62,537 nt of DNA from Chloroflexota bacterium (GCA_016190625.1 JACPQF010000075.1:1-62537); one strand, 5' to 3'; numbered from the stretch's first letter, positions 2,905-50,523 are shown. The notes: generated by a model not told the origin, from the sequence alone. Numbers and translations: made by a program.

Positions 2905-3252
2905 AGTGGTCAGCTATCAGCGATCAGCCGTCAGCGATCAGCTTTCAGCAATCAGCCTTCAGCCTTCAGGTATTAGCCTGCGGACTCATGAAGTTCAAAG
3001 AAAACGTCGGGTGCCGGCGGCCAGGACACGGCGTCAACGAATGGACAGCGAATAAGCGAATGAAGGTGTACTGGCTATTCGCTTATTCGCTGAACATTCG
3101 CTGACGCCGCACCCTCGTATTGTGTTGAGCTTCATTTCTCCGCAGGGCTGCTGACTGCCGATGGCCAATGGCTGACCGCTGATCGCTGATAGTTGACGGC
3201 TGATAGCTGATGGCTGATAGCTGACGGCTGATAGCTGACGGCTGATAGCTAT
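2905..3252. repeat. 348-bp foldback element with heptamer-array arms (TCAGCNN x~8.7 at 2910-2970; GCTGAYR x~14.4 at 3150-3250) around a non-repetitive inverted-repeat core
   Basis: Read directly. Core arms are 2977-2998 vs 3125-3146 and 3030-3062 vs 3075-3108. Fills the whole intergenic gap. Confidence 0.9.
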
Positions 3253-3777
3253 CTAAGTTCTTTGTGCCTTTGTGTTTAAGCCTCCTCGCCGGGCCGTCTC
3301 GAACGCCTCTTTCTCTTCGTCGGACAGCGGATACACGGGCTGGCCTTTCTGAATGGGCTTAGCGTACACCCTCGTGCTGGCGCGGTTGTGTAGCGAGGTT
3401 ATCACCACGCCGTTGTCGTAGTCGTCGAGGAGGGCTACACAGAAGCTCTGGTCGCTTCCCATGTCGGCGAACGGGTTGAAGCGGATGAGGCCGACGTGCT
3501 GGACCGAGCCGCGAACTACCTCGGCGAGACGCAGGAAATCGCGGCCGAGGTCCTCGACCCGCTTGCCCGTTCCCTCGACACGAGTCATGAAGGTCTCGAG
3601 CGCCTTTTCGAGGCTCTGCCCCTCCGAATCTTTGAGCAGCCGCTGGTAGTTCTGCCTCGTCCTCGACAGGCGCTGGTGAATCAAGACCACCTCGACGACG
3701 AGGCCGATCTGAATCAGCAGCATAACTACGCCAAGAACGTAATAAAAGCGGTCGTATAGGGCAATCAACTGGTCCAA
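3253..3777 (-). CDS. DUF4446 family protein (N-terminal TM helix)
   Basis: LIRFNPFADMGSDQSFCVALLDDYDNGVVITSLHNRASTRVYAKPIQKGQPVYPLSDEEKEA resembles the DUF4446 core. Confidence 0.8.
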   Translation of the reverse strand: MDQLIALYDRFYYVLGVVMLLIQIGLVVEVVLIHQRLSRTRQNYQRLLKDSEGQSLEKALETFMTRVEGTGKRVEDLGRDFLRLAEVVRGSVQHVGLIRFNPFADMGSDQSFCVALLDDYDNGVVITSLHNRASTRVYAKPIQKGQPVYPLSDEEKEAFETARRGGLNTKAQRT

Positions 3778-9118: not shown

Positions 9119-9544
9119 ATGATCGATGCCAGAGGTATTCAGGAAATCCTCCCCCATCGCTATCCCTTTCTGTTGGTCGATAGGATCGTCGAGCTAGAGA
9201 GCGGGGCACGGGCGGTAGGGATCAAGAACGTTTCTGCCAACGAGCCCTTCTTTCAGGGCCATTTCCCCGGCCATCCCATAATGCCAGGCGTGCTCATCGT
9301 CGAGGCCCTCGCCCAGGTCGGCGCCGTGGCCATCCTGAGCCTCGAGGCGAACCGGGGAAAGCTGGTGCTGTTCGCTGGCATCGACGGCCTTCGCTTTCGC
9401 AAACCCGTCATCCCGGGAGACACCCTCCGCCTCGAAGTGTCCCTGACCAAGATCAGGGGTCCCGTCGGCAAGGGCGCGGCCAAAGCCACGGTGGATGGCC
9501 AGGTCGCCGCCGAAGGCGAGCTTACCTTCGCCCTCTCGACGTGA
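9119..9544 (+). CDS. fabZ: 3-hydroxyacyl-ACP dehydratase FabZ
   Basis: [13 protein letters not shown] and [23 protein letters not shown]. Confidence 0.95.
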
Positions 9545-9642
9545 GGGTATAGGGCAAAGGGTAGAGGGTAAAGGGTAGAGGGTATTGGGGGGAGGCCCTC
9601 TACCCTCTACCCTCTACCCTCTACCCTCCGCCCTCAACCCTG
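9543..9642. repeat. hairpin element with heptamer-array arms (NAGGGTA x6 / CTACCCT-type x~6)
   Basis: Left arm 9543-9584, loop ttggggggaggcc, right arm about 9596-9642. Begins within the fabZ stop codon. Confidence 0.85.
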
Positions 9643-14138: not shown

Positions 14139-15329
14139 ATGGCGCGGCCGTTGGAAGGCGTCACAATACTGGACCTAACGTGGGCGCTGTCGGGGCCGTT
14201 CGGGACGATGGTGCTGGCCGACCTGGGGGCGGAGGTCATCAAGGTAGAGCGACGGGTCGTCGGCGACCTCGCCCGGAGCACCGGCCCTTTCGTCGGCGGC
14301 GTCAGCACCTACTTCTTTAGCATCAATCGCGGCAAGAAGAGCGTCACGCTCGACTTGAAGACGGACAGGGGAAAGGATGTCTTCCTTGGGCTGGTCGAGC
14401 GCGTCGACGTGCTTACCGAGAACTTCGTCCCGGGAACAATGGCGAGCCTCGGCCTCGACTACGCGGTTCTCCGCCAGCGTAACCCCCGCCTCATCTACGC
14501 CGCCACCTCCGGTTTTGGCCAGACTGGACCATACGCCAACAGGCCGGCCCTCGACATTATCGTCCAGGCCATGTCGGGCCTGATGAGCATCACTGGTGAG
14601 CCGGACAGACCCCCCATGAGAGTTGGCGCCTCCGTTGGCGATACAACGGCCGGCCTGTTCATGGCTATTGGCATTCTCGCCGCTCTCCACGAGCGCAGCA
14701 GAAGCGGCCAGGGACAAATGATCGACGTCAGCATGCTCGACTGCCAGCTCTCGATAATGGAGAACGCCTATGTCAGGTACCTCAACACCGGCGAGATACC
14801 CCGTCGCATTGGCACTCGCCATCCGGTTATCGCGCCTTTTCAGGCCTTTCCCACCAGGGACAACTGGATCGTTATCGCCATGGGAGGCGGAACCAATCGT
14901 TGGGCGCTGTTCTGCGCTGCCATCGACCGGCTGGACCTGATCGACGACGAGCGCTTTCAATCCGGCTACTCTCGCAGTCGGAACGTGTACGAGCTGGAGC
15001 CGATCATCGCCGACGCGCTGAAGAAAAAGACGACGGCCGAGTGGCTCGCCGATTTCGCCTCCATCGGTCTACCCTGTGCCCCCATCAACCGAATCGACCA
15101 GGCAGTCGCAGATCCCCAAATCTCCGCCCGCCAGATGATCGCCGAGGTGCCGGCGGGAAACGGCACAAGCATGCGCCTCGTGAACACTCCAGTCAAGATG
15201 TCCCGCACGCCGTGTACGGTCGAGCAAGGCTCACCGGCCCTAGGCCAACACACCCGCGAGATCATCTCCTCCCTGCTCGGCCTGAGCGAGGAGGAGCTGG
15301 ACGGGCTGGAAAAGGAAGAGGTAATCTAG
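14139..15329 (+). CDS. family III CoA-transferase (CaiB/BaiF family)
   Basis: MARPLEGVTILDLTWALSGPFGTMVLADLGAEVIKVE. The track ORF start at 13707 is an antisense over-extension across the toxin-antitoxin genes. Confidence 0.9.
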   Translation: MARPLEGVTILDLTWALSGPFGTMVLADLGAEVIKVERRVVGDLARSTGPFVGGVSTYFFSINRGKKSVTLDLKTDRGKDVFLGLVERVDVLTENFVPGTMASLGLDYAVLRQRNPRLIYAATSGFGQTGPYANRPALDIIVQAMSGLMSITGEPDRPPMRVGASVGDTTAGLFMAIGILAALHERSRSGQGQMIDVSMLDCQLSIMENAYVRYLNTGEIPRRIGTRHPVIAPFQAFPTRDNWIVIAMGGGTNRWALFCAAIDRLDLIDDERFQSGYSRSRNVYELEPIIADALKKKTTAEWLADFASIGLPCAPINRIDQAVADPQISARQMIAEVPAGNGTSMRLVNTPVKMSRTPCTVEQGSPALGQHTREIISSLLGLSEEELDGLEKEEVI

Positions 15330-15330
15330 T

Positions 15331-15553
15331 AGCTGTCAGCTATCAGCCTACAGAATAGCCCACGAATCCTATGAAGATTAACAAATAAAGCGGATATTTG
15401 CCCGTAGGGGCGATGTCCTTCGGCTGAAGGATGCTCGCCCCCGTCCCCCACCTTGGCCGCCACGGAGGGTCGGCCACTGCGACGAACACTCGGTTGTGTT
15501 GTCAACGTTCATTCGTCCGCAGGCTGACGGCTGACGGCTGACGGCTGACGGCT
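15331..15553. repeat. second copy of the heptamer-armed foldback family (TCAGCNN x~2 at 15336-15349; GCTGACG x~4.4 at 15523-15553) with a nested REP palindrome (15404-15442)
   Basis: Core ends ..ATAGCC..CG.A.TC.TATGAAG.. and CTCGGTTGTGTTG..TTCATT..TCCGCAGG match the 2905-3252 element. Fills the whole gap. Confidence 0.85.
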
Positions 15554-15572
15554 AATGGGGTATAATGCAAGG

Positions 15573-16118
15573 GTGAAATGCGCTCAGCACCCTAACGTCG
15601 ATACCAACCTTCGCTGCGGGAAATGTGACAAGCCCATATGTCCCAAGTGCATGGTCTACACCCCGGTTGGAGCGCGGTGCAAGGCTTGCGCTCATCTCAA
15701 GCGGCTGCCTATGTTCGAGGTCACGGCTTCCCAATACGCTCTGGCCGCCGGGCTGGGCATCGCGCTCACTTTGGTCGCCGGCAGCCTGTGGGCGCTGCTG
15801 CTAGTCGCCATTCCCTTCGTCGCCGCCTTTGTCCCCCTTGCGGCGGGCTATCTCGTCGGCGAGGCTATCAGCCTGACGGTCAACCGCAAGCGAAGCGTCG
15901 GGCTTCAAGTCATCGCCGGCGTCACCGTTCTTGCCGCCTACGTTTTCAGCCGGATGGCTCCCTTTATCGTTGCCAGTCTGGCTAGCTCGCAGAGTCCCTT
16001 GAACGCCCGCATGCTTCTCCGGCTGGGTGGCTTGATCGTCGCCGGCACGGTCGGCCAACCGCTGGCCCTGTTGTTCCTGGCTCTGGGCATCTATCTGGGT
16101 GTTTCACGCCTGCGCTGA
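15573..16118 (+). CDS. zinc-ribbon (B-box-like CxxC x4) membrane protein, 4-5 TM
   Basis: CAQHPNVDTNLRCGKCDKPICPKCMVYTPVGARCKAC followed by hydrophobic helices. GTG 15573 is preferred because TATAAT (15561-15566) lies inside the track ORF start at 15555. Confidence 0.6.
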   Translation: MKCAQHPNVDTNLRCGKCDKPICPKCMVYTPVGARCKACAHLKRLPMFEVTASQYALAAGLGIALTLVAGSLWALLLVAIPFVAAFVPLAAGYLVGEAISLTVNRKRSVGLQVIAGVTVLAAYVFSRMAPFIVASLASSQSPLNARMLLRLGGLIVAGTVGQPLALLFLALGIYLGVSRLR

Positions 16119-16290
16119 CGCCCGGGCCCAACCAGACATTTGCGGCTAATCGCCGGCCTGGCGGCTTGAGTTTGCTTTGGCGGTCGCCCGGGAGACATAA
16201 ATCGCCGGACTGCGCACTAAACTCATTTGCATACCTGAGGCGAGCATTTGAAGAGATCTGACCCCGAGCTACCTGAGGGAGGGGAACTAG

Positions 16291-16485
16291 GCAGCTCCGA
16301 ATCCGGGCCGGGATCTACCCCGCCATCGCAGGGATGTTCCCGTCACGGTTGTCCTGCCGGAGTTCGTCCCCAACCACTGGTGGGAGTTCTTCTTGCACAA
16401 CCAGACGGCTCTCCGGCTGAATCTCGCCCTCTTCTTTCGGCCAAACACCATAGTGGTCGACGTGCCTTATCGCACGCGAGGCTGA
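16291..16485 (+). pseudogene. C-terminal remnant resembling the conserved tail of Actinobacteria/Chloroflexi-type amino-acid (APC) permeases
   Basis: Translated by me: ...VTVVLPEFVPNHWWEFFLHNQTALRLNLALFFRPNTIVVDVPYRTRG*. Bounded upstream by an in-frame TAG, with no start codon or N-terminal domain. Confidence 0.4.
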
Positions 16486-17490: not shown

Positions 17491-17512
17491 AGGTTTCTGG
17501 CTATCACATCGA

Positions 17513-17554
17513 TCGTATGGGCGGATCCTTCCGCCGAAGGATTCGCCCATACGA
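17513..17554. repeat. REP-like palindrome TCGTATGGGCGGATCCTTC-CGCC-GAAGGATTCGCCCATACGA
   Basis: Near-perfect stem of about 18 bp, read directly. Lies 3' of fmt. Confidence 0.85.
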
Positions 17555-28303: not shown

Positions 28304-29746
28304 CTAATCGGGAACCGGTTTCACTGCTCGCCGCCGCTCTTCACGCGCTGCAACATGGCGCTGGCGGGCAGTGTCCGGAATCAGGAAGACCACCGGCACG
28401 GCAAGAATCGAGACCAGCCCAAAAGCAAAGAATACCCCCTGCACGCCCATCGCCTGCTGCTGTTGCTCGAATTGGCTAGCTACCAGGATTACGATTGCCG
28501 TTCCGAACACGCCGCCCGTCGACCGGAACATGCCACGCAAGCCCACCATGGCCGCCACTTTTCCCGGCATCAGGTCTAGGCACGCGTTGTTGGAGGCCGG
28601 CGCCGCTATCCCTTGGCCCGCACCTGCGAGCAGGACTATGAGCGACAAGAGCACGAAATTCGGCACCTGCAGGCCCAGCAGAGACACGTCATGGAAGCCC
28701 TGACTAACCAGAAACAAACTCGGCGCGTTGAGCACCAGGCCCAGCACCATGGGTAGACGAAAGCCCCAGCGAATCACAAAGATGCTGCTCAACGCCGAAG
28801 CGGTCGCCATGGCCACCGAACGCGGCGCCAAAATCGAACCGCTTTCCGCCGCGCTCATCCCATAGGCCACGGTCGCATAATAAGGCACGAACGACGAAAA
28901 ACCGAACAGGACCAGCCCAAAGAGAAAATTGTAGATATTGCTAGCCGCGAGCGGGCGGCTGGTGAGCAACTCCAGCTCGATGACCGGCGAAGGGGTACGG
29001 CCCTCGTGCCAGAGGAATACTACCATGGCGACCATTCCCACGACGATAAGCATCAAGACCAGCGGGTGTCGGATAGACTGCGCGTCGTTGGCCCAGGCGG
29101 TCATCGCCAGCAAGATGGCGACCATCGAGCCGGTGAAAAGTCCACCGCCGATAGCGTCGACCCGCTTTCTCTGGCTCAGCAGCTTAGTCTGGGGGATAAG
29201 CGCTAGAGCGGCCAGGAATATGGCCACGGAGATCGGCACGCAACCATAGAACAACCAGCGCCAGGAGAAGTGGTCGATGACGAATCCCCCAATAGTGGGT
29301 CCGACCACGCCGCCGACGGGATAGATGCTAGAGAAGAGGCCGATGGCGGTGGCGCGCCGTTCGCCGAAAGAATCGCTTACTATGCTCGTTGCCGACGGCA
29401 ACTGGGCGCCAGAAGCGACCGCCTGCAGTATGCGGGCGAAGATGAGCACGTAAACGTTTGGAGCAAAGCCAGCCATGAAGGTGCCGACCGCAAAGCCGAC
29501 CATTGAGACGAAAAGCACCCGGCGGGCGCCCCATTCGTCGCTTATCTTGCCTGCCAATGCCATCGCGATGCCCTGAGCGAGCATGAATCCAGTCAGAGTC
29601 CAACCCACCCAGGCGAGGCTAGTATTCAAATCGTCCAGCATCCTCGGTAGGGCAACCGCAACTATGGTCCCATTGATCGAGGTAATCAGAAAGGCGGCGG
29701 ATACGATGCCAAAGACGATGTACGAACGGCGATTGGGCAGAGTCAT
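28304..29746 (-). CDS. MFS transporter, DHA2/EmrB-like (14 TM), paralog 1
   Basis: MTLPNRRSYIVFGI..., LAGKISDEWGARRV and FARILQAVASGAQLP motifs, with about 14 hydrophobic segments. Confidence 0.9.
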   Translation of the reverse strand: MTLPNRRSYIVFGIVSAAFLITSINGTIVAVALPRMLDDLNTSLAWVGWTLTGFMLAQGIAMALAGKISDEWGARRVLFVSMVGFAVGTFMAGFAPNVYVLIFARILQAVASGAQLPSATSIVSDSFGERRATAIGLFSSIYPVGGVVGPTIGGFVIDHFSWRWLFYGCVPISVAIFLAALALIPQTKLLSQRKRVDAIGGGLFTGSMVAILLAMTAWANDAQSIRHPLVLMLIVVGMVAMVVFLWHEGRTPSPVIELELLTSRPLAASNIYNFLFGLVLFGFSSFVPYYATVAYGMSAAESGSILAPRSVAMATASALSSIFVIRWGFRLPMVLGLVLNAPSLFLVSQGFHDVSLLGLQVPNFVLLSLIVLLAGAGQGIAAPASNNACLDLMPGKVAAMVGLRGMFRSTGGVFGTAIVILVASQFEQQQQAMGVQGVFFAFGLVSILAVPVVFLIPDTARQRHVAAREERRRAVKPVPD

Positions 29747-29804
29747 CTATCGCTCACAGACAGTCGTGTGGTCGGTCAAGGGCATGTTGTCCTATCGGAT
29801 GACG

Positions 29805-29842
29805 GCAGTATAGCCTGCTCTTACGGTTACGTCAAGGTTAGA
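29805..29842 (-). promoter_or_regulatory. conserved 38-nt promoter/operator block, copy A (TTGACG-17-TATACT)
   Basis: -35 at 29830-29835 and -10 at 29807-29812 (minus strand). 37 of 38 positions are identical in all three copies (copy B has C for T at one site). Confidence 0.7.
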
Positions 29843-29999
29843 GACAAGAACATCAACGGTCAGGCTGACTGGCGTCTCATTGGTGTTTCCAGACAGAGCC
29901 CATGTCATGATGTACCCAATCTATGAATGGCCTCCGTCCCCGGTAGACTGATCGGCTGGCTATTCCACGTAATCTGACATGGACGCCAATGGCTGATCC

Positions 30000-31436
30000 C
30001 TAATCGCGGGCCGGCGGCCCCGCCGCTCGCCGGCGCTCCCTCCGCGCCGCCACGTAGCGCTCGTGAGCAGAATCTGGAATGAGTAAAGCCAACGGCACGG
30101 CGAGCAAGCCAAGCAAGGCAAGTGCCAAGATTATCGTTTGCATGCCAGATGCCTGCTGTTCCCCAAATCGACTGGCTGCCAGTACAATCGCGGCTGTTCC
30201 GAGCAGGGCGCCCGTAGTCCGGAACGTGCCACGCAGCCCCACCGCAGCCGCTAGCTTTCCCGGCACCAGGTCCAGCGACGCGTTGTTAGAAGGTGGCGCC
30301 TGAATTCCATGTCCAAATCCTGCCATCATAACCATGGACGATAAGAGCACGAGGTTTGGCACTTGCAAGCCTAATAGCGATAGGTCGTGAAAACCCCGAC
30401 TGACCATGAGCATGCTCACCGAGTTGAGGACAAAGCCTAAAACCATCGGCATTCGATAGCCCCAACGCATCAGAAAGACGCTGCTAACGATCGAGGCAAT
30501 GGCCATGGCCGCGGAACGTGGCGCCAGGACCGCGCCGCTCTCGCCGGCGCTCATCCCGTAGACAACCGCCGCATAATAGGGAATAAAGGAAGAGACAGTA
30601 GACAGCACCAACCCGTATAGGAAATTGTAGAGGTTGGCCGCCACAAGTGAGCGACTGGTAAGCAGCTCAAGCTCGATCACCGGCGACGGAGTTCGCCCCT
30701 CATGCCAGAGAAATATGCCCAAAGCCACCGCGCCGGCGACGACGAGCAGCCAGGTGAGCGGATTTTCAATAGATTGCACGTCGTTTCCCCACGCCGTCAT
30801 CGCCGACAATATGGCCACCATGGAGCCGGAGAACAAGCCAACGCCGATCAAGTCAAGCCCCTTGCCTTGGCTGAGGGATTTGCTCGGCGGAATGAATGCC
30901 AAGCCCACGAGGTATAACGCCGCTCCGATAGGTGCGCTACCGTAGAACATCCACCGCCAGGAGAAGTGGTCGATAACGACTCCTCCGACGGTGGGGCCGA
31001 GTACACCACCCAAGGGAAAAATGCTGGTGAAGAGGCCAATGGCGGTCGCTCGCCGTTCGCCAAAGGCGTCGCTCACTATGCTCGTGGCCGATGGCAACTG
31101 GGCGCCTGCAGCGACTGCCTGCAAAATGCGCGCAAAGATGAGCACGTAGACATTCGGGGCAAATCCGGCGAGAATCGTGCTCGCGGTGAACACGATCATG
31201 GATACCGAGAATACCCGGCGGGCGCCCCAATCATCGCTCAGCTTTCCAGCCAGTGGCATGACAATACTTTGGCCCAGTTGGTAGCCCGTGAGGGTCCAGC
31301 CAACCCAGGTTAGACTAGTATCCAAATCCGCCAGCATCTTCGGAAGGGCAACCGCCACAATGGTGGCACTAACGGAAGTGATTGTCAAGCCAGCAGATAC
31401 GATGCCGAAAACAATATAAGAGCGCAGAGACGTCAT
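30000..31436 (-). CDS. MFS transporter, DHA2-like, paralog 2
   Basis: Homologous along its full length to paralogs 1 and 3. Start taken at MTSLRSY, 22 nt after the paralog 3 stop. The track start at 31556 is over-extended. Confidence 0.9.
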   Translation of the reverse strand: MTSLRSYIVFGIVSAGLTITSVSATIVAVALPKMLADLDTSLTWVGWTLTGYQLGQSIVMPLAGKLSDDWGARRVFSVSMIVFTASTILAGFAPNVYVLIFARILQAVAAGAQLPSATSIVSDAFGERRATAIGLFTSIFPLGGVLGPTVGGVVIDHFSWRWMFYGSAPIGAALYLVGLAFIPPSKSLSQGKGLDLIGVGLFSGSMVAILSAMTAWGNDVQSIENPLTWLLVVAGAVALGIFLWHEGRTPSPVIELELLTSRSLVAANLYNFLYGLVLSTVSSFIPYYAAVVYGMSAGESGAVLAPRSAAMAIASIVSSVFLMRWGYRMPMVLGFVLNSVSMLMVSRGFHDLSLLGLQVPNLVLLSSMVMMAGFGHGIQAPPSNNASLDLVPGKLAAAVGLRGTFRTTGALLGTAAIVLAASRFGEQQASGMQTIILALALLGLLAVPLALLIPDSAHERYVAARRERRRAAGPPARD

Positions 31437-31458
31437 CCTGCCTTCCGTCCGCCGATAG

Positions 31459-32895
31459 CTAATGGACAACCGGTGTCGCCCCACGCCGCCGCTCCCGCGT
31501 CGCGACAAAGCGCTGGCGGGCGGTGTCCGGGATCGCGAAAACGGCAGGCACGGCAACCAGGCCGATTAGGCCAAGAGCCAAGAATACCGTTTGCATGCCC
31601 TCTGCTTTCTGCGGCCCGAACTGGCTGACCACCAGAATAGTGGCCGCCATGCCGAACACGCCGCCTGTCGCCCGAAACATGCCCCGCAGTCCCACGGCCG
31701 CCGCGATCTGCCCCGGCACCAGGTCGAGAGAGGCGTTATTGGCCGGCGGCCCACACACTCCCTGTCCGAGGCCGGCCAGCATCACTATGGACGATAGCAG
31801 CACAACGTTGGGCACTTGCAGGCCCAACAAGGACAGATCGTGAAAGCCCTGGCTGACCAGGAACAAGCTCACCGAGTTGAGGACCAGGCCCAAGATCATG
31901 GGCATGCGATAGCCCCAGCGAATGAGAAGAACACTACTCACCGTCGAGGCGATGACCATTGCCGCCGACCGCGGCGCTAGCACTGCCCCGCCTTCCCCTG
32001 CGCTCATTCCGTAGGCAACCGTAGCATAATAGGGAACAAAAGAAGACAGGGTGAAAATCGAGACCCCGAAGAGGAAATTGTAGAAGTTGCTAGCCAGGAG
32101 AGGGCGATCGGTAAGCAACTTGAGCTCGATTACCGGCGCCGGACTGCGCTTTTCGTGTCGAAGGAACACCACCAAAGCGATCACTCCCGCGATGACGAGG
32201 AGCCACGTGAGAGGGTTTCGCATGGACTGAGCGTCATCGCCCCAGGCCGTCATTGCCGACAAGATGGCAACCATCGAGCCGGCGAACAGTCCGGCGCCGA
32301 CGACGTCCACCGGCTTTCCTCCTTCCAGGCGTTCACTCCGGGGAATGAGGGCCAATCCCGCGAGGAGAGTCAGAGCCGAGACTGGAACGCCCCCGTAAAA
32401 CATCCACCGCCAGGAGAAATGGTCGATGACAAACCCGCCGATGTTGGGGCCGATCACGCCACCCAGAGGATAGATGGCGGTGAACAGGCCAATGGCCGTG
32501 GCCCTTCGCTCGCCAAACCCATCGCTCGCTATGCTGGTAGCTGCCGGCAGCAGGGCACCCCCCGCAATTGACTGCAGCACGCGGGCAAAGATGAGGACGA
32601 ATATGTTGGGAGCAAACCCACAAAGAAAGGAACCGACCGTGAACAAGGCCGTTGCCCAAAGGAACACCCGCCGTGCTCCCCAATCGTCGCTCAGCTTGCC
32701 AGCCAGTGGCATGGAGACGCTCTGGGCCAACTGATAACCGGTCAGGGTCCAGCCGGCCCAGGCGAGGTTGGTTTCGAGATCTTCCATCATTTTCGGCAGG
32801 GCAACCGCCACCATGGTGTTGCTAATGGAACTGGTGAGAAAGCCAACGGATATGATGCCGAAGACAATGTAGGAGCGCCGGTTGGGCAATGTCAT
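31459..32895 (-). CDS. MFS transporter, DHA2-like, paralog 3
   Basis: The N-terminus MTLPNRRSYIVFGI is identical to paralog 1, with the same motif set. Confidence 0.9.
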   Translation of the reverse strand: MTLPNRRSYIVFGIISVGFLTSSISNTMVAVALPKMMEDLETNLAWAGWTLTGYQLAQSVSMPLAGKLSDDWGARRVFLWATALFTVGSFLCGFAPNIFVLIFARVLQSIAGGALLPAATSIASDGFGERRATAIGLFTAIYPLGGVIGPNIGGFVIDHFSWRWMFYGGVPVSALTLLAGLALIPRSERLEGGKPVDVVGAGLFAGSMVAILSAMTAWGDDAQSMRNPLTWLLVIAGVIALVVFLRHEKRSPAPVIELKLLTDRPLLASNFYNFLFGVSIFTLSSFVPYYATVAYGMSAGEGGAVLAPRSAAMVIASTVSSVLLIRWGYRMPMILGLVLNSVSLFLVSQGFHDLSLLGLQVPNVVLLSSIVMLAGLGQGVCGPPANNASLDLVPGQIAAAVGLRGMFRATGGVFGMAATILVVSQFGPQKAEGMQTVFLALGLIGLVAVPAVFAIPDTARQRFVATRERRRGATPVVH

Positions 32896-32954
32896 CTTTC
32901 GATCACAGTTGGTCGACCTCGAAGAGCCAAGGAATGTCGTTCCAAGGAATGACA

Positions 32955-32992
32955 GCAGTATAGCCCGCTCTTACGGTTACGTCAAGGTTAGA
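32955..32992 (-). promoter_or_regulatory. conserved 38-nt promoter/operator block, copy B
   Basis: -35 at 32980-32985 and -10 at 32957-32962 (minus strand). Confidence 0.7.
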
Positions 32993-33078
32993 GCCAGAAT
33001 TATCCTGCTTGACTGGTTGACGACCACCTGAACACCGTGATAAACTGGCGCAGGATTGGTTGCGCTAAGGAGGAAGGA

Positions 33079-33627
33079 ATGGCCCGCATACCCGAGGTTC
33101 TCTTCAAGTCAGCGCTCCCCAAAGATAAGCAGCACATCTTCGATTCCATCGCCGAGAGCAGGGGAAGGGTAGCCGGCCCTTTCTCCTTTCTGCTACAAAG
33201 CCCGGAAGTGGCAGGCCGGGTGGCCCACCTTGGCGCCTACATCCGCTTCGAATCCGGCCTGTCTGGGGCGGAAAAGGAGCTGGCGATTATCACTGCGGCT
33301 AGAGAGAACGATTGCGGATATGAGTGGGCAGCCCACGTCAAGCTGGCCCGCAAGGCTGGCGTGCGCGATGAGGCCATTGACGCCGTAGGCCGTCGTGCTC
33401 CCCTCGATTCGCTCACCGAAGCAGAAACGGCCATCGTGGAGTATGGGCGCGAGCTACTGCGCGATCATCGCGTGTCCGACCAAACCTTCGAGGCGGCCAG
33501 ATCCCGCTTCGGCGATTCCGGCCTCATTGAGTTGACGACCACTTTTGGCTACTACGCCATGTTGGCTTGCGTGCTCAATGCTTGCGGTGCCGAGCCACCT
33601 CCCGGCTCCGAACGCCTGCCCGTGTAG
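33079..33627 (+). CDS. carboxymuconolactone decarboxylase (AhpD-like) family protein
   Basis: ELAIITAARENDCGYEWAAH core. RBS AAGGAGGAAGG. Confidence 0.8.
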   Translation: MARIPEVLFKSALPKDKQHIFDSIAESRGRVAGPFSFLLQSPEVAGRVAHLGAYIRFESGLSGAEKELAIITAARENDCGYEWAAHVKLARKAGVRDEAIDAVGRRAPLDSLTEAETAIVEYGRELLRDHRVSDQTFEAARSRFGDSGLIELTTTFGYYAMLACVLNACGAEPPPGSERLPV

Positions 33628-33694
33628 GAGTCGGGAGACAGGGGTCAAGCCATCGTCCCCGGAATCCTGCCTCCCTTTCCCCTGCCCCCACAAC

Positions 33695-33967
33695 CTAACC
33701 GCCCTGAAGCGCCGGCAGGAACTCGATCTCCGACTCGTCCCCCACGGGCTGGAGTAGGCGTAGGTCTGTCACGACGCCGTCGACGGCCACGCCGAGATAA
33801 GGGTTGATCTGGTCGCCCTGGCACAGGCGACCACGAAACCCTGGATAGGTCGACTCTAAAGCCCTCAGCACCTGGTCGACCGTCGCTCCCGGAGCCGCCA
33901 CTCGTGCCTTGCCGCCGGTCAGGTCCCGCATAAGCGGAGGAACCAGCACACTGGCCAAGACTTGCAT
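33695..33967 (-). CDS. MoaD/ThiS-family ubiquitin-like sulfur-carrier protein
   Basis: 90 aa ending in ...EIEFLPALQGG (C-terminal Gly-Gly). Start taken at MQVLAS. Confidence 0.75.
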   Translation of the reverse strand: MQVLASVLVPPLMRDLTGGKARVAAPGATVDQVLRALESTYPGFRGRLCQGDQINPYLGVAVDGVVTDLRLLQPVGDESEIEFLPALQGG

Positions 33968-34234
33968 CCACCCCCTTCTGTGTCGAGATTCTCGAGCCGA
34001 GGTCGCCTCCCTCACGCCGGAGTCATGGCAGGCCGTTGCAGCTATGGTATACTTAGGGCGACGAGAAGCCCAGGATCGAGGGAGTTGCGGCGTCCATTCT
34101 AGCATCCGTCGCTCGTGTCGTCAACGTCCGTAGCGATGAGGGGTTGAATGGGAGGAAAGACATATCCGTGCAATCTCTACAGAAATCCGTTGACAGCCGC
34201 GTCCCCACGCTCGTCCAAGAAGAGGGGACATGCA

Positions 34235-34840
34235 ATGAAGCGAGACAAAGCGAAGATTGCTGGCTTGGTCCTGGCCGCCGGCTACTCTAGCCGTATGGGC
34301 AGCTTCAAGCCTTTGCTCCCCCTTGGTGACGCTACCGTGATTGAAAAGTCCGTGGGCAGTCTCCTCGGAGCCGGCGTGAAGGACGTGAGTGTGGTCGTCG
34401 GCTGGCGGGCCAACGAGATCGTCTCCCTCTTGGGCACACCCGGAGTGAAGGCGGTTTACAATCCCCATTATGACTTGGGCATGTACTCCTCGGTTGTGGC
34501 CGGCGTTGGCAGCCTGGGTCCGGCAGTCGACGCCTTCCTCCTGCTGCCAGGCGACTATCCGCTGGTAAAGCCCCATACCGTGCAGTCTCTGATTGGCGCC
34601 TACCTAAACAGCCGGGCGGGAATCGTCTACCCCCGCTATCTGGGTCGCCGGGGCCATCCCCCCCTTATCGAAAGGAGGTACGTGGAAGAAGCCCCCGACG
34701 CTAGCCAGCCAGGCGGACTAAGAACAGTGCTGAGACGTCATGAAGACGAAGCGATAGACGTCGTGGTAGACGATCAGGGTGTAATCATGGATCTGGATAT
34801 TCCTGACGATTACGCGAAGGCGCTGTTCCGTTGCAAGTAG
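34235..34840 (+). CDS. MobA/MocA-like nucleotidyltransferase (molybdenum cofactor cytidylyl/guanylyl-transferase family)
   Basis: GLVLAAGYSSRMGSFKPLLPL and LLPGDYPLV. Confidence 0.8.
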   Translation: MKRDKAKIAGLVLAAGYSSRMGSFKPLLPLGDATVIEKSVGSLLGAGVKDVSVVVGWRANEIVSLLGTPGVKAVYNPHYDLGMYSSVVAGVGSLGPAVDAFLLLPGDYPLVKPHTVQSLIGAYLNSRAGIVYPRYLGRRGHPPLIERRYVEEAPDASQPGGLRTVLRRHEDEAIDVVVDDQGVIMDLDIPDDYAKALFRCK

Positions 34841-34854
34841 CTCGCAGCTAGCCT

Positions 34855-36300
34855 TTAGTCCGTCGTCGAGACAGCGTCCCGCCGCTGCTTGTCTCGCGCG
34901 GCCACAAAGCGCTGACGCGCCGCATCCGGGATGAGAAACACCAGCGGAATAGCTGCTAGGGCGGCGAGACCAAGTCCCAGAAACACCACCTTTAGTCCCA
35001 TTGCTTCATCCTGAAACTGGCTGACCACCAGGACGGTGGTCGCCAACCCGAACGTGCCGCCTGTCGAGCGAAACATGCCGCGGATGCCAACCACTGCTGC
35101 CACCTTCCCTGGCACGAGGTCCAGGGAGGCGTTGCTGGATGGCGGCGCCGCCGTCCCGTGTCCGAGGCCTAACAGCATCACTATCGCCGAGAGCAGCACA
35201 ACGTTTGGTATCTGCAGACCCATGAGCGATGCGTCGTGATAGTACTGGCTTACCAGCAGCAAGCTCGTCGCACTGAAGAGAAAGCCCAAGATCATCGGGA
35301 AGCGATAGCCCCAGCGAATGAGGAACACGCTGCTCACCGTCGAGGCGGCTATCATTGCCAATGAACGGGGCGTCAGGATCATGCCGCTCTCTGCGGCGGT
35401 CATGTCATAGACTTTAGTGGCCAAATACGGGATATACCCCATTGCGCTGAACAGCACAAGTCCGTAGAGAAAGTTATACAAGTTCGTCGCCAGAAACGGG
35501 CGAGTGCGGAGCAGTTCCAGCTCGATTATCGGCGAGGGAGTGCGGCCCTCGTGCCGCAGGAATAACACCAGGATGATCAGGCCGACGACAGCCACCACCC
35601 AGGTAGTCGGGTTCCCGAGAGATGTTGTATCGTTGCTCCAAGTGGTCATGGCCGCCAGGACGGCGACCATACCGCCGGCGAAGAGGCCGATGCCGAAGGT
35701 ATCTACCTGCTTGCCCCCGGCGGACCGTCCTCCCCGGGGAATGAGCACTAGCCCGAGGAGAAATATGATGGCCCCAAAGGGGATGTTGCCGTAGAACATC
35801 CAGCGCCAGGAGAAGTGGTCGATGATAAACCCGCCGATGTTGGGGCCGATCACGCCGCCGATTGGCATGACCGAGGTGAACATGCCGATGGCGGCCGCCC
35901 GGCGGTCGCCAAAGCAATCGCTTACGATACTCGTCGCCGAAGTCATCAGGCCGGCATGCGACAGCGCCTGCAGCATACGAGCGAGAACAAGAACGTAGAC
36001 GTCGGGCGCCGCTCCCGCCAGAATAGAGCTGAAGACGAAGAGCACCACCGCCCCCAGGAAAACCCGGCGGGCCCCCCAATCGTCGGCTAGCTTACCCGAG
36101 ATCGGCATGAGTATGCTCGAAGCGAGCTGATAGCCGGTCAGCGTCCAGCCTACCCAGGCGAGGTTGGTATCCAAGTCCTTCAGCATAGTCGGAAGAGCAA
36201 CCGACACAATGGTACCCGTTATGGAGGTCATCAGGAAACCACCGGACAGAGCCGCAAAGATCAAGTAGGCTCGCCTGTCAACCAAGCTCATCTCTCGCAC
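34855..36300 (-). CDS. MFS transporter, DHA2-like, paralog 4
   Basis: Same architecture and motifs (ISGKLADDWGARRV). The start may be ATG 36291 (MSLVDRR). Confidence 0.9.
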   Translation of the reverse strand: MREMSLVDRRAYLIFAALSGGFLMTSITGTIVSVALPTMLKDLDTNLAWVGWTLTGYQLASSILMPISGKLADDWGARRVFLGAVVLFVFSSILAGAAPDVYVLVLARMLQALSHAGLMTSATSIVSDCFGDRRAAAIGMFTSVMPIGGVIGPNIGGFIIDHFSWRWMFYGNIPFGAIIFLLGLVLIPRGGRSAGGKQVDTFGIGLFAGGMVAVLAAMTTWSNDTTSLGNPTTWVVAVVGLIILVLFLRHEGRTPSPIIELELLRTRPFLATNLYNFLYGLVLFSAMGYIPYLATKVYDMTAAESGMILTPRSLAMIAASTVSSVFLIRWGYRFPMILGFLFSATSLLLVSQYYHDASLMGLQIPNVVLLSAIVMLLGLGHGTAAPPSSNASLDLVPGKVAAVVGIRGMFRSTGGTFGLATTVLVVSQFQDEAMGLKVVFLGLGLAALAAIPLVFLIPDAARQRFVAARDKQRRDAVSTTD

Positions 36301-36350
36301 ATCGTCAATTAAAGCGGACGTATCTCAAACGGCGTCTCTAGCGAATAGGA

Positions 36351-36388
36351 GCAGTATAGCCTGCTCTTACGGTTACGTCAAGGTTAGA
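36351..36388 (-). promoter_or_regulatory. conserved 38-nt promoter/operator block, copy C
   Basis: -35 at 36376-36381 and -10 at 36353-36358 (minus strand). Confidence 0.7.
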
Positions 36389-36426
36389 CTGGCGAACAAC
36401 TGCCTGCTCTATTGCGACAGGGCGGC

Positions 36427-41973: not shown

Positions 41974-41992
41974 GCTGATAGCTGACCTCTAC

Positions 41993-49749: not shown

Positions 49750-50523
49750 TCATCTCCCTTTCCAAACAGGCTTTCGCTTGGCCTTAAATGCTTCACGTCC
49801 CTCGACGGCATCCTCGGTTTCCTGCAAGAGGCTGCCAAGAAACCCTTCGAGCTTGATGCCTTCGTTCAGCGTCAGGTCATAACCCTTTATCGCAGCCTCC
49901 TTGATCGCCCGCACAGCTAAGGGGGGGCAATCGAGCAACCTCCGGGCGTAATCGAGGGCGGTGGGCATTAGTTCCTCCTTGGGCACGATCTTGTTTAACA
50001 TGCCCAGACGATAGGCTGCCTGAGCGTCAATACGGTCGCCGATGAGGAGGAGTTCCATAGCCAGGGGATAGGGTAACTGACGAATGGCCCGCTGGGTACC
50101 ACCGTTTCCTGGGAGGATGCCGCGCTTGACTTCTGAAAGGCCGAAGGTGGCGTGCTCGGCCGCGACGCGGATGTCACAAGCAAACAGCAGAGTAAGCCCG
50201 CCGCCCAGACAGTAGCCGTTCACGGCGGCGATCACCGGCTTGAACACGTCTAGGCCGCGGTTCAGAATGGGGAAAGGCGGGCGAATGAAGTAAGCTTCGG
50301 ACGGGCTCATGCGCCCGAAATTCGTCTTGAGGTCCGCCCCCGCCGAAAAGGCCCGATCCCCGGCGCCGGTGATGACCGCCACCCACATGTCCGGATCGTC
50401 GCGGAAGTCGACCCAGGCCTCCGAAATGCGCTGGTACATGTCCGGATCCATGGCGTTCATGGCCTCCGGCCGATTCATGGTAAGGAAAGCAATGTGGTCT
50501 TTTTTCTCGTAGATTAGTCCCAT
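49750..50523 (-). CDS. enoyl-CoA hydratase/isomerase (crotonase) family protein
   Basis: AFLTMNRPEAMNAM, VITGAGDRAFSAGADL and AAVNGYCLGGG. The track start at 50790 is over-extended. Confidence 0.9.
   Translation of the reverse strand: MGLIYEKKDHIAFLTMNRPEAMNAMDPDMYQRISEAWVDFRDDPDMWVAVITGAGDRAFSAGADLKTNFGRMSPSEAYFIRPPFPILNRGLDVFKPVIAAVNGYCLGGGLTLLFACDIRVAAEHATFGLSEVKRGILPGNGGTQRAIRQLPYPLAMELLLIGDRIDAQAAYRLGMLNKIVPKEELMPTALDYARRLLDCPPLAVRAIKEAAIKGYDLTLNEGIKLEGFLGSLLQETEDAVEGREAFKAKRKPVWKGR

Follow-up and report, generated by a model that had tools for sequence, protein, structure and literature searches.

We describe here the 223-base spacer at positions 15331-15553 of a 62,537-nucleotide stretch of DNA from a Chloroflexota bacterium (GCA_016190625.1 JACPQF010000075.1:1-62537; this whole stretch is hereafter the window). 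The spacer lies between the stop codon of a family-III coenzyme A (CoA) transferase gene (Pfam CoA_transf_3, E 2e-132) and the gene for a small B-box zinc-finger membrane protein. The best explanation overall, and one we consider reasonably probable, is that the spacer is a composite, partly decayed member of an abundant class of intergenic foldbacks with arms of tandem heptamers, standing beside a native promoter. We hold the structural and evolutionary part of this account with high confidence; the functional part, which is read from sequence, is tentative. The host is related to Dehalococcoidia/Chloroflexota, with a best fmt match of 54% identity, homologues named Chloroflexota, and a groundwater metagenome as its source.

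A preliminary description had called the spacer the second copy of a heptamer-armed foldback family first seen at 2905-3252 (copy 1 below; the spacer is copy 2), with a nested repetitive extragenic palindrome (REP) and an arm unit acting as a -35 box. Every feature listed there was located in the sequence, and the arms, the right core end and the inner palindrome proved non-random. Some boundaries moved: the left-arm units TCAGCTA TCAGCCT lie at 15336-15349 as described, with the true arm start at the AGC at 15331; the right array is present and covers 15522-15553 (x4.6) rather than 15523-15553 (x4.4); and the GGGGCG..TCCTTC palindrome starts at 15407, the earlier 15404 being 3 nt early. The features of the two copies are as follows.

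15327-15332, plus strand: TAG TAG, the tandem stops of the CoA-transferase gene, the second of which runs into the start of the left arm
15331-15353, plus strand: left arm remnant of copy 2, AGC TGTCAGC TATCAGC CTACAG (TCAGCNN units), ancestral and shared with the comparator L222
15354-15403, plus strand: left core end of copy 2, decayed, with weak resemblance by alignment to the left end of copy 1 around ATGAAG
15407-15442, plus strand: nested REP-like hairpin GGGGCG-ATG-TCCTTC-GGCT-GAAGGA-TGCT-CGCCCC
15489-15523, plus strand: right core end of copy 2, CTCGGTTGTGTTGTCAACGTTCATTCGTCCGCAGG, homologous to 3114-3146 of copy 1 (local alignment against shuffles)
15522-15553, plus strand: right arm of copy 2, (GGCTGAC)x4.6 (Tandem Repeats Finder, TRF, 100% matches, score 64)
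15538-15543, plus strand: arm unit CTGACG at the -35 position, 17 nt from the -10, a candidate -35 from the promoter scan
15555-15557, plus strand: alternative in-frame ATG, one base past the array, which would add MGYNAR to the protein
15556-15575, plus strand: native promoter-and-start block TGGGG-TATAAT(15561-15566)-GCAAGG-GTG(15573), outside the repeat and conserved in L222
2905-3252, no strand assigned: copy 1, an intact 350-nt foldback (sequence, TRF and fold)
2909-2969: left arm of copy 1
2977-2998 and 3125-3146: terminal inverted repeat (TIR) of copy 1
3029-3109: nested palindrome of copy 1
3151-3250: right arm of copy 1

Although the left arm of copy 2 is down to two or three units, the polarity of TCAGCNN on the left and NNGCTGA on the right is kept, and its right arm is perfectly homogeneous, giving TGA in all three frames. 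Copy 1 is a nearly perfect foldback, with a predicted RNA fold of -203.8 kcal/mol (z = -15); the predicted fold of 15331-15560 has -98.5 kcal/mol (z = -4.5).

Membership of copy 2 in the family of copy 1 holds, as the arm logic is shared and the right core ends are significantly homologous. Two-unit CTGAYNG matches number 24 in the window against 1.25 expected (about 20-fold), a count reached in none of 100 shuffles. The core-end pattern compared between the copies was CCTGCGGA..ATGAAG / CTTCAT..TCCGCAGG. When the copies were aligned, as the preliminary description had proposed, the right ends gave local scores of 25-27 against shuffle means of 11-16 (reached by 0/1000 and 2/500 shuffles), and the similarity of the left ends was marginal (44/1000 shuffles reach the observed score, p ~0.04). 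The TIR within copy 1 is significant (0/1000 shuffles), and the two ends of copy 2 are not significantly inverted copies of each other (88/1000). The arms are inverted in both copies and the core of copy 1 ends in a significant TIR, the inverted-repeat organization of miniature inverted-repeat transposable elements (MITEs). The interiors differ, each copy holding its own nested palindrome; that of copy 1 is itself repeated in the metagenome, at 10-60x the depth of its flanks.

No core copies beyond these two were found. A scan of species genomes (596 Gb) for the core end plus arm returned 21 taxonomically scattered matches, and a scan of JGI metagenomes for TCAT-N3-TCCGCAGG plus arm returned 28, mostly coding, with no third core among them. 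The sole Chloroflexota match of the core scan (L021) was rejected, since it lies in coding sequence. Target-site duplications were found at neither copy nor at 20 related loci, where some flanks merely extend the palindrome.

The history of copy 2 can be followed in L222, a Dehalococcoidia metagenome-assembled genome contig that carries the closest orthologue of the B-box gene (76% amino acid identity) in full synteny. L222 begins with a CoA-transferase C-terminus about 80% identical to that of the window, and after its stop codon comes a short-loop heptamer foldback, ATC TAG ATAGCTATTGGCCG(ACAGCCG)x4 ... (GCTGAAA)2 GCTAATT, so that the junction of a stop followed by TAGCT is common to both. 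The order in L222 is then foldback, enoyl-CoA hydratase gene, 54-nt spacer and B-box gene. By blastn, L222 1-223 corresponds to window 15132-15353 (76.7% identity) and L222 1132-1459 to window 15556-15889; the first block runs through the left arm and homology resumes directly after the array. Because the first block spans it, the left arm of copy 2 is orthologous and old. The presence/absence difference is therefore confined to the inner part: 202 nt of the window (15354-15555: core, REP hairpin and right arm) occupy the place of 908 nt in L222, where the hydratase gene stands between the remainder of the foldback and the -35 region of the B-box gene.

This comparison is read most simply as a stretch having been replaced or deleted in the lineage of the window, with breaks that would lie inside the heptamer array and beside the -10 of the B-box gene; a right arm so perfectly homogeneous is consistent with recent growth. 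In the more distant L457 a hydratase gene also stands directly after the CoA-transferase gene. Homologues of the CoA-transferase reach at most 66% identity, and the two whose contexts were inspected (P0156/L457 and P0157/L455) lack B-box synteny; L222 is the true syntenic comparator. The syntenic hydratase gene is missing from the window, which carries a paralogue at 49753-50523 (minus strand), 50% identical to the L222 hydratase.

Copy 1 also differs in presence between relatives. The groundwater contig L226 keeps the DUF4446-NUDIX synteny (NUDIX protein 82% identical) and lacks copy 1, its spacer measuring 66 nt against 363 nt in the window. The outer ends of the arms mark the limits of homology on both sides, and about 39 nt are replaced, with no clean duplication. 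At this junction the window DUF4446 gene runs six codons past the position of the L226 TAA, which is CAA in the window (window 3253-3282 against L226 970-990), and ends at a TAG abutting the foldback, so that its stop codon is supplied by element-boundary sequence.

Next, we consider the promoter and start of the B-box gene. The hexamers of CTGACG(15538-15543)-N17-TATAAT(15561-15566)-N6-GTG(15573) score 10/12, and this is the sole promoter-like match in 14800-16300; TATAAT by itself is not rare (10 in the window against 5.9 expected). GTG 15573, taken as the first plausible start in the preliminary description, is the best-supported one: 12 of 20 homologues start with M[KRQ]C exactly at its position, and L222 reads TGGGT-TATAAT-GCGGGG-GTG at identical spacing, with CTG where the window has ATG 15555 and no other in-frame start possible between the upstream stop and GTG. 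For annotation, the GTG start is thus favoured. No record of the exact B-box protein sequence, from either start, was found in the databases. No Shine-Dalgarno (SD) sequence precedes the GTG; only AAGG in the window or GGGG in L222 abuts it. A -10 that ends 6 nt before the start codon, together with the lack of an SD, is characteristic of leaderless mRNAs. The earlier suggestion of a leaderless or near-leaderless promoter is plausible from the conservation of TGGG-TATAAT-GC-N4-GTG. More distant B-box orthologues carry an SD plus ATG, so leaderless expression would be specific to the closest pair, the window and L222. As to a general leaderless habit, the window contains four candidate -10/start pairs only, which lend no support either way.

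The suggestion that the element supplies this promoter did not hold: the -10 and the start predate the right part of the element. Since TATAAT, the 6-nt gap and GTG are conserved in L222, where no array adjoins them and the -10 is non-coding, the promoter is native and not element-borne. This bears on an alternative in which the foldback is a mobile promoter-donating element, like the Correia elements of Neisseria, whose arm gives a -35 and creates the B-box promoter. Correia elements are small intergenic inverted repeats that can contribute promoter hexamers to adjacent genes and form mRNA hairpins cleaved by RNase III. The high-scoring and, within 1.5 kb, unique site speaks for donation, as do the replacement of the ancestral -35 region by the array and the single base by which CTGACG differs from TTGACG, the -35 hexamer of three conserved promoter copies in the window. 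However, the sequence upstream of the -10 in L222 is different, without heptamers; the -10 hexamer is conserved there and the -35 is not, the -35 region of L222 being poor (ATGAAG), so that a -35 may be dispensable here. Copy 1, moreover, has no array-borne promoter on either side. An arm unit does stand at the -35 position with a 17-nt spacer, as described before, yet this is no property of the family: among the matches listed, the array-borne -35/-10 arrangement occurs in 3 of 175 arrays in other genomes against 3.05 expected, and the 7-nt period places some unit at 16-18 nt spacing in about 3/7 of cases by chance. We therefore consider promoter donation unlikely; use of the arm as a -35 at this one locus is possible, but coincidental for the family, and annotators should be warned that consensus promoters beside such arrays are mostly coincidental. 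Spacing-based phase variation would likewise be unlikely, since the promoter-proximal unit stays put when the copy number of the array changes.

The three conserved instances of TTGACG belong to a block TTGACG-N17-TATACT (minus strand; 29781-29846, 32931-32996 and 36327-36392) that precedes three of four paralogous major facilitator superfamily (MFS) transporter genes at 28304-36392, minus strand. The spacer of this block is fully conserved, and the block may be a promoter plus operator.

The arms of copy 2 belong to a much larger class. In the source metagenomes, summed depth over the right-arm array is about 22,700 against about 10 for the flanks, from hundreds of unrelated contigs with unrelated loose ends, and dozens of metagenome contigs link left-type and right-type arms via short, differing loops. 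We surveyed the class with a (CTGANNG)x4 scan of species-representative genomes and viral contigs, in which the counts are lower bounds. Among the matches listed, to which the taxa and polarity counts below also refer, species-representative genomes and viral contigs each contribute more than 120 loci. Acidobacteriota are the most frequent, followed by Chloroflexota, Planctomycetota, Verrucomicrobiota, Poribacteria, Nostoc/Okeania (Cyanobacteria) and others. The foldbacks inspected follow a stop codon by 0-5 nt and reach almost to the next gene, with loops ranging from a few bases to a cargo gene. Their polarity is TCAGC-left/GCTGA-right by 43 pairs to 5 in genomes and by 61 to 9 in viral contigs. 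Between arms, best-register identity reaches 0.59, compared with 0.61 +/- 0.02 in unit-order shuffles; the variable bases are thus no more complementary than in shuffles. What defines the arms is therefore the word GCTGA, and neither selection for a perfect stem nor the copying of one arm from its partner. In sum, these foldbacks are intergenic, carry (TCAGCNN)n in the left arm and (NNGCTGA)n in the right, keep a fixed polarity and occur in many bacterial phyla and in phages. One metagenome contig that skips 177 nt had been considered as a core-less allele of copy 2 and was rejected: only the window allele crosses 15305-15352, so the contig represents another locus.

A dense case is the 34-kb viral contig IMGVR_UViG_3300045936_000120 (L285, L326, L329), a tailed phage with a tape-measure protein, a head-tail adaptor and DNA methyltransferases. 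It carries about 60 GCTGANN/TCAGCNN arrays, about 2 per kb, at nearly all gene junctions, often in the order stop, 0-5 nt, foldback, AGCT, 0-4 nt, ATG, with no SD. This layout suggests intercistronic punctuation, comparable to the RNase III sites that separate early genes of phage T7, or a juxtaposition of stop and start for re-initiation.

The second of these options, applied to the window, gives an alternative in which the B-box gene is translated mainly by coupling: on a read-through mRNA the hairpin would juxtapose the stop at 15327-15332 and ATG 15555 for re-initiation, and TATAAT would be no more than the codons GGG-TAT-AAT. The window fits the phage layout (TAG TAG, foldback, A, ATG 15555), and no SD stands before GTG 15573. 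Coupling has also been proposed for the hairpins of the cyanobacterial short tandemly repeated repetitive (STRR) sequences (PMC2670836), and TAACTGA repeats lie near starts that lack an SD (PMC4679880). Against coupling, L222 has CTG in place of the ATG, so that no upstream start is possible there, yet it keeps TATAAT-N6-GTG, and 12 of 20 homologues start at the GTG position. Proximity of start codons to arrays, assessed on open reading frames (ORFs), is enriched at most twofold over random positions, a test that is not discriminating in high-GC DNA. We accordingly give coupling a low probability.

A further alternative is that these are plain heptanucleotide slippage repeats at pre-existing palindromes, neither mobile nor functional, with the core similarity due to local duplication. 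Heptamers are the commonest long simple repeats of prokaryotes and have been ascribed to slippage (Mrazek 2007, as cited in PMC4679880). The array at the copy 2 site is old, having diverged unit by unit from that of L222, and a second family of heptamers, AGGGTAN/CCCTCTA, is arranged in the same way at 9544-9641. Slippage alone leaves unexplained, however, why the same GCTGA core recurs across phyla and phages, the polarity rule (43:5 and 61:9), the cargo between the arms, the absence of copy 1 from the close relative L226 and the density of arrays in the phage contig; as a complete account it is improbable. That the region encodes a structured non-coding RNA, or a leader of the riboswitch kind for the B-box gene, is scarcely credible: the predicted fold is strong, but neither the region at gathering or relaxed thresholds nor 16 related foldbacks gave an Rfam match, the interior is conserved neither between the two copies nor with L222, and the arms do not covary.

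Taken together, we favour the composite foldback beside a native promoter, for which the following course of events can be envisaged. Heptamer arrays would grow and shrink by replication slippage, for which Mrazek 2007 is cited in PMC4679880, and would act as recombination substrates; roles in rearrangement have been suggested for heptamer repeats (PMC4679880). The hydratase gene would have been lost, and the array brought to the -10, by a deletion combined with an exchange within the array, in which the partner was probably a copy-1-like element. The B-box gene would still be transcribed from its own leaderless-type promoter, now with CTGACG at the -35 position. In read-through RNA the arms would form a long, imperfect hairpin in which 5-bp GCUGA/UCAGC blocks alternate with 2x2 internal loops, and this hairpin could insulate the transcript or be processed in the manner of RNase III. 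This predicted hairpin resembles the structure of 23S rRNA intervening sequences (IVSs).

Several points weigh against this account. Whether the hydratase gene was gained or lost is judged from two comparators, and one of these is only 66% identical. The core family consists of two copies in the window, and the matches from the genome and metagenome scans were attributable to chance. No target-site duplication, transposase or clean empty site turned up, transposases not having been sought genome-wide; any mobility of copy 2 is hypothetical, and copy 1 offers a presence/absence difference only. Leaderless mRNAs initiated at GUG are translated poorly in some bacteria. Finally, the predicted stems contain many mismatches, so cleavage by RNase III is a guess.

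Comparison with known repeats places the element close to the cyanobacterial STRR sequences, which are tandem 7-bp units in intergenic DNA whose inverted sets form hairpins between co-oriented genes such as hupS-hupL; roles in transcript stability, in termination or in translational coupling have been suggested for them, none of these being established (PMC2670836). The tandem heptanucleotide units, intergenic position and hairpin-forming inverted sets are all shared with the window copies. Unlike STRRs, these have the unit GCTGACG, a Chloroflexota/Dehalococcoidia-like host instead of a heterocystous cyanobacterium, and loops with a MITE-like core and a REP-like hairpin. The unit sequences of STRR1-3 differ from GCTGANN. 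In the searchable literature we found neither fixed polarity nor phage and PF05635 associations described, and no bacterial heptamer foldbacks outside cyanobacteria and Beggiatoaceae. We describe the element as a variant of STRR-like heptamer repeats and hairpins that lies outside cyanobacteria and has MITE-like and REP-like cargo.

A second relative is the TAACTGA heptamer, found as direct repeats in Beggiatoaceae, Cyanobacteria and Bacteroidetes (MacGregor 2015, PMC4679880). These AT-rich repeats are intergenic, lie a few nucleotides upstream of starts, often without an SD, are mixed with other heptamers and can be absent from the same spacer in close relatives; they mostly form direct arrays, with one inverted set reported in BOGUAY (PMC4679880). 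The CTGA core is common to both, if the unit is read as CTGATAA, whereas the unit here is GGCTGAC and the cargo and foldback architecture has not been described for TAACTGA.

Likeness to other elements is partial. The Correia elements, which are Neisseria MITEs, have 26-bp TIRs, a TA duplication and an integration host factor (IHF) site and lack tandem heptamer arms, whereas the window locus has a native -10 and no duplication was found there. REPs, bacterial interspersed mosaic elements (BIMEs) and REPINs are palindromes of extragenic DNA, found where neighbouring genes converge or share an orientation, and nesting can occur among them; the hairpin at 15407-15442 is REP-like, with five related copies in the window, but the heptamer arms are not. 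The foldback (FB) elements of Drosophila and the Galileo transposons have long inverted arms with variable numbers of tandem subrepeats, and some carry genes (PMC3573991, PMC4079207). Heptamer foldbacks share with them inverted arms of tandem subrepeats, a middle that is variable or absent, and gene-bearing copies; FB and Galileo elements differ in being eukaryotic, in their longer subrepeats and, for Galileo, in a P-like transposase, none being known for heptamer foldbacks.

A further likeness is to the 23S rRNA IVSs, in which a long stem surrounds a loop that may carry a PF05635 (23S_rRNA_IVP) gene. An IVS consists of a stem with an ORF in its loop and is removed by RNase III. The present elements differ in lying between protein-coding genes and not in rRNA helices, and the window copies lack PF05635. 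A PF05635 gene for a '23S rRNA intervening sequence protein' does stand between the arms of a heptamer foldback in L165 (Blastocatellia; 2183-2659, E 8e-41), and another PF05635 gene is found at L210:1656-2098. We collected 80 loci with relatives of the L165 protein (L375-L454; gene at about 1001-1351) from Acidobacteriota, Planctomycetota, Anaerolineales, Poribacteria, Bacteroidota, Verrucomicrobiota and others. By a strict test, period-7 arrays adjoin the PF05635 gene upstream in 33/79 and downstream in 23/79, with 19 on both sides, compared with 9/519 control windows in the same loci; a looser detector places a period-7 array in 64/80 loci, mostly beside the gene. Of the 19 two-sided loci, 14 have upstream and downstream arrays that are reverse complements of each other. 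The flanking units vary by lineage (TCAGCNN/GCTGANN, TTAGCNN/GCTAANN, TAAGCTN/AGCTTAA, TCAGTTN/AACTGAN and CCAGCNN/GCTGGNN). The PF05635 four-helix-bundle protein is a relative of Avd, the accessory protein of diversity-generating retroelements (DGRs). In the two window copies, tblastn and hidden Markov model (HMM) searches of six-frame translations revealed no PF05635 gene or remnant (best E 0.22), and the idea that the window cores are decayed PF05635 genes was rejected accordingly.

The flanking pattern suggests, by analogy, that the foldbacks are IVS-like elements. It is possible, though doubtful, that there is one pan-bacterial and phage-borne class of IVS-like insertion elements with an RNase III-cut stem, of which the PF05635-bearing members would be the full-length form and the cargo-less members miniature derivatives. 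Their arms would be fixed-polarity heptamers with an AGC/GCT core, such as TCAGCNN/NNGCTGA, propagated or maintained by the PF05635 protein or another heptamer-reading factor. The elements would punctuate the space between cistrons and also offer sites for recombination, through which genes beside them could be deleted or swapped, the hydratase gene being an example. If true, this would join the STRR and other heptamer repeats, the TAACTGA repeats and the function of the 23S rRNA IVS proteins. No paper linking PF05635 with heptamer repeats was found in the searchable literature.

STRR and heptamer repeats have been known since 1990, and tandem heptamers, the commonest long bacterial simple repeats, have had no accepted function or origin for decades. 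The locus together with L222 and L226 provides a concrete case, in which an old array persists, a core and a young array replace a gene, and a native leaderless-type promoter abuts the array. The survey adds rules that can be checked (fixed polarity, no covariation of arms, filling of phage gene junctions, frequent PF05635 cargo), and these make the choices between mobile element and slippage product, and between function at the DNA and at the RNA level, experimentally approachable.

The window contains further repeats. The reading of the inner palindrome of copy 2 as a nested REP holds, as it belongs to a REP-like family recurring in the window: TCCTTC-N4-GAAGGA hairpins occur 5 times against 0.18 expected, and the 15407-15442 hairpin has 4-5x the metagenome depth of its flanks. 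Related hairpins lie at 2083-2112, 17512-17553 and 1400-1471, the first two sharing the outer stem GGGCG...CGCCC with 15407-15442. The hairpin at 2083-2112 is inside a long minus-strand ORF (1587-2303), and a double palindrome stands at 1400-1471; its ends read AGCGAAT, a motif that recurs in the nested palindrome of copy 1 (3047-3091).

Searches for tRNA and tmRNA genes found none in the window, and no Rfam family matched the window or 16 related loci at gathering threshold, or the region at relaxed threshold. Matches to the Acido-Lenti-1 RNA (RF01687) at L208:53-98 and L192:6435-6480 are kilobases from the heptamer foldbacks of those loci and are probably unrelated to them.

The second heptamer family, (AGGGTAN)x6 + (CCCTCTA)x6.6 at 9544-9641, builds the same architecture as the GCTGA-type foldbacks, with 46-nt arms, a 6-nt loop and a start on a TGA stop; its G-rich arm has G3-N4 spacing, as in G-quadruplex motifs. 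At 1549-1581 there is an ACCCTCT array on its own. Decayed heptamer remnants are found at 29985-30007 (GCCAATGGCTGATCCCTAATCGC), in the spacer after an MFS paralogue and resembling the inner right arm of copy 1, and at 41975-41988 (CTGATAGCTGACCT).

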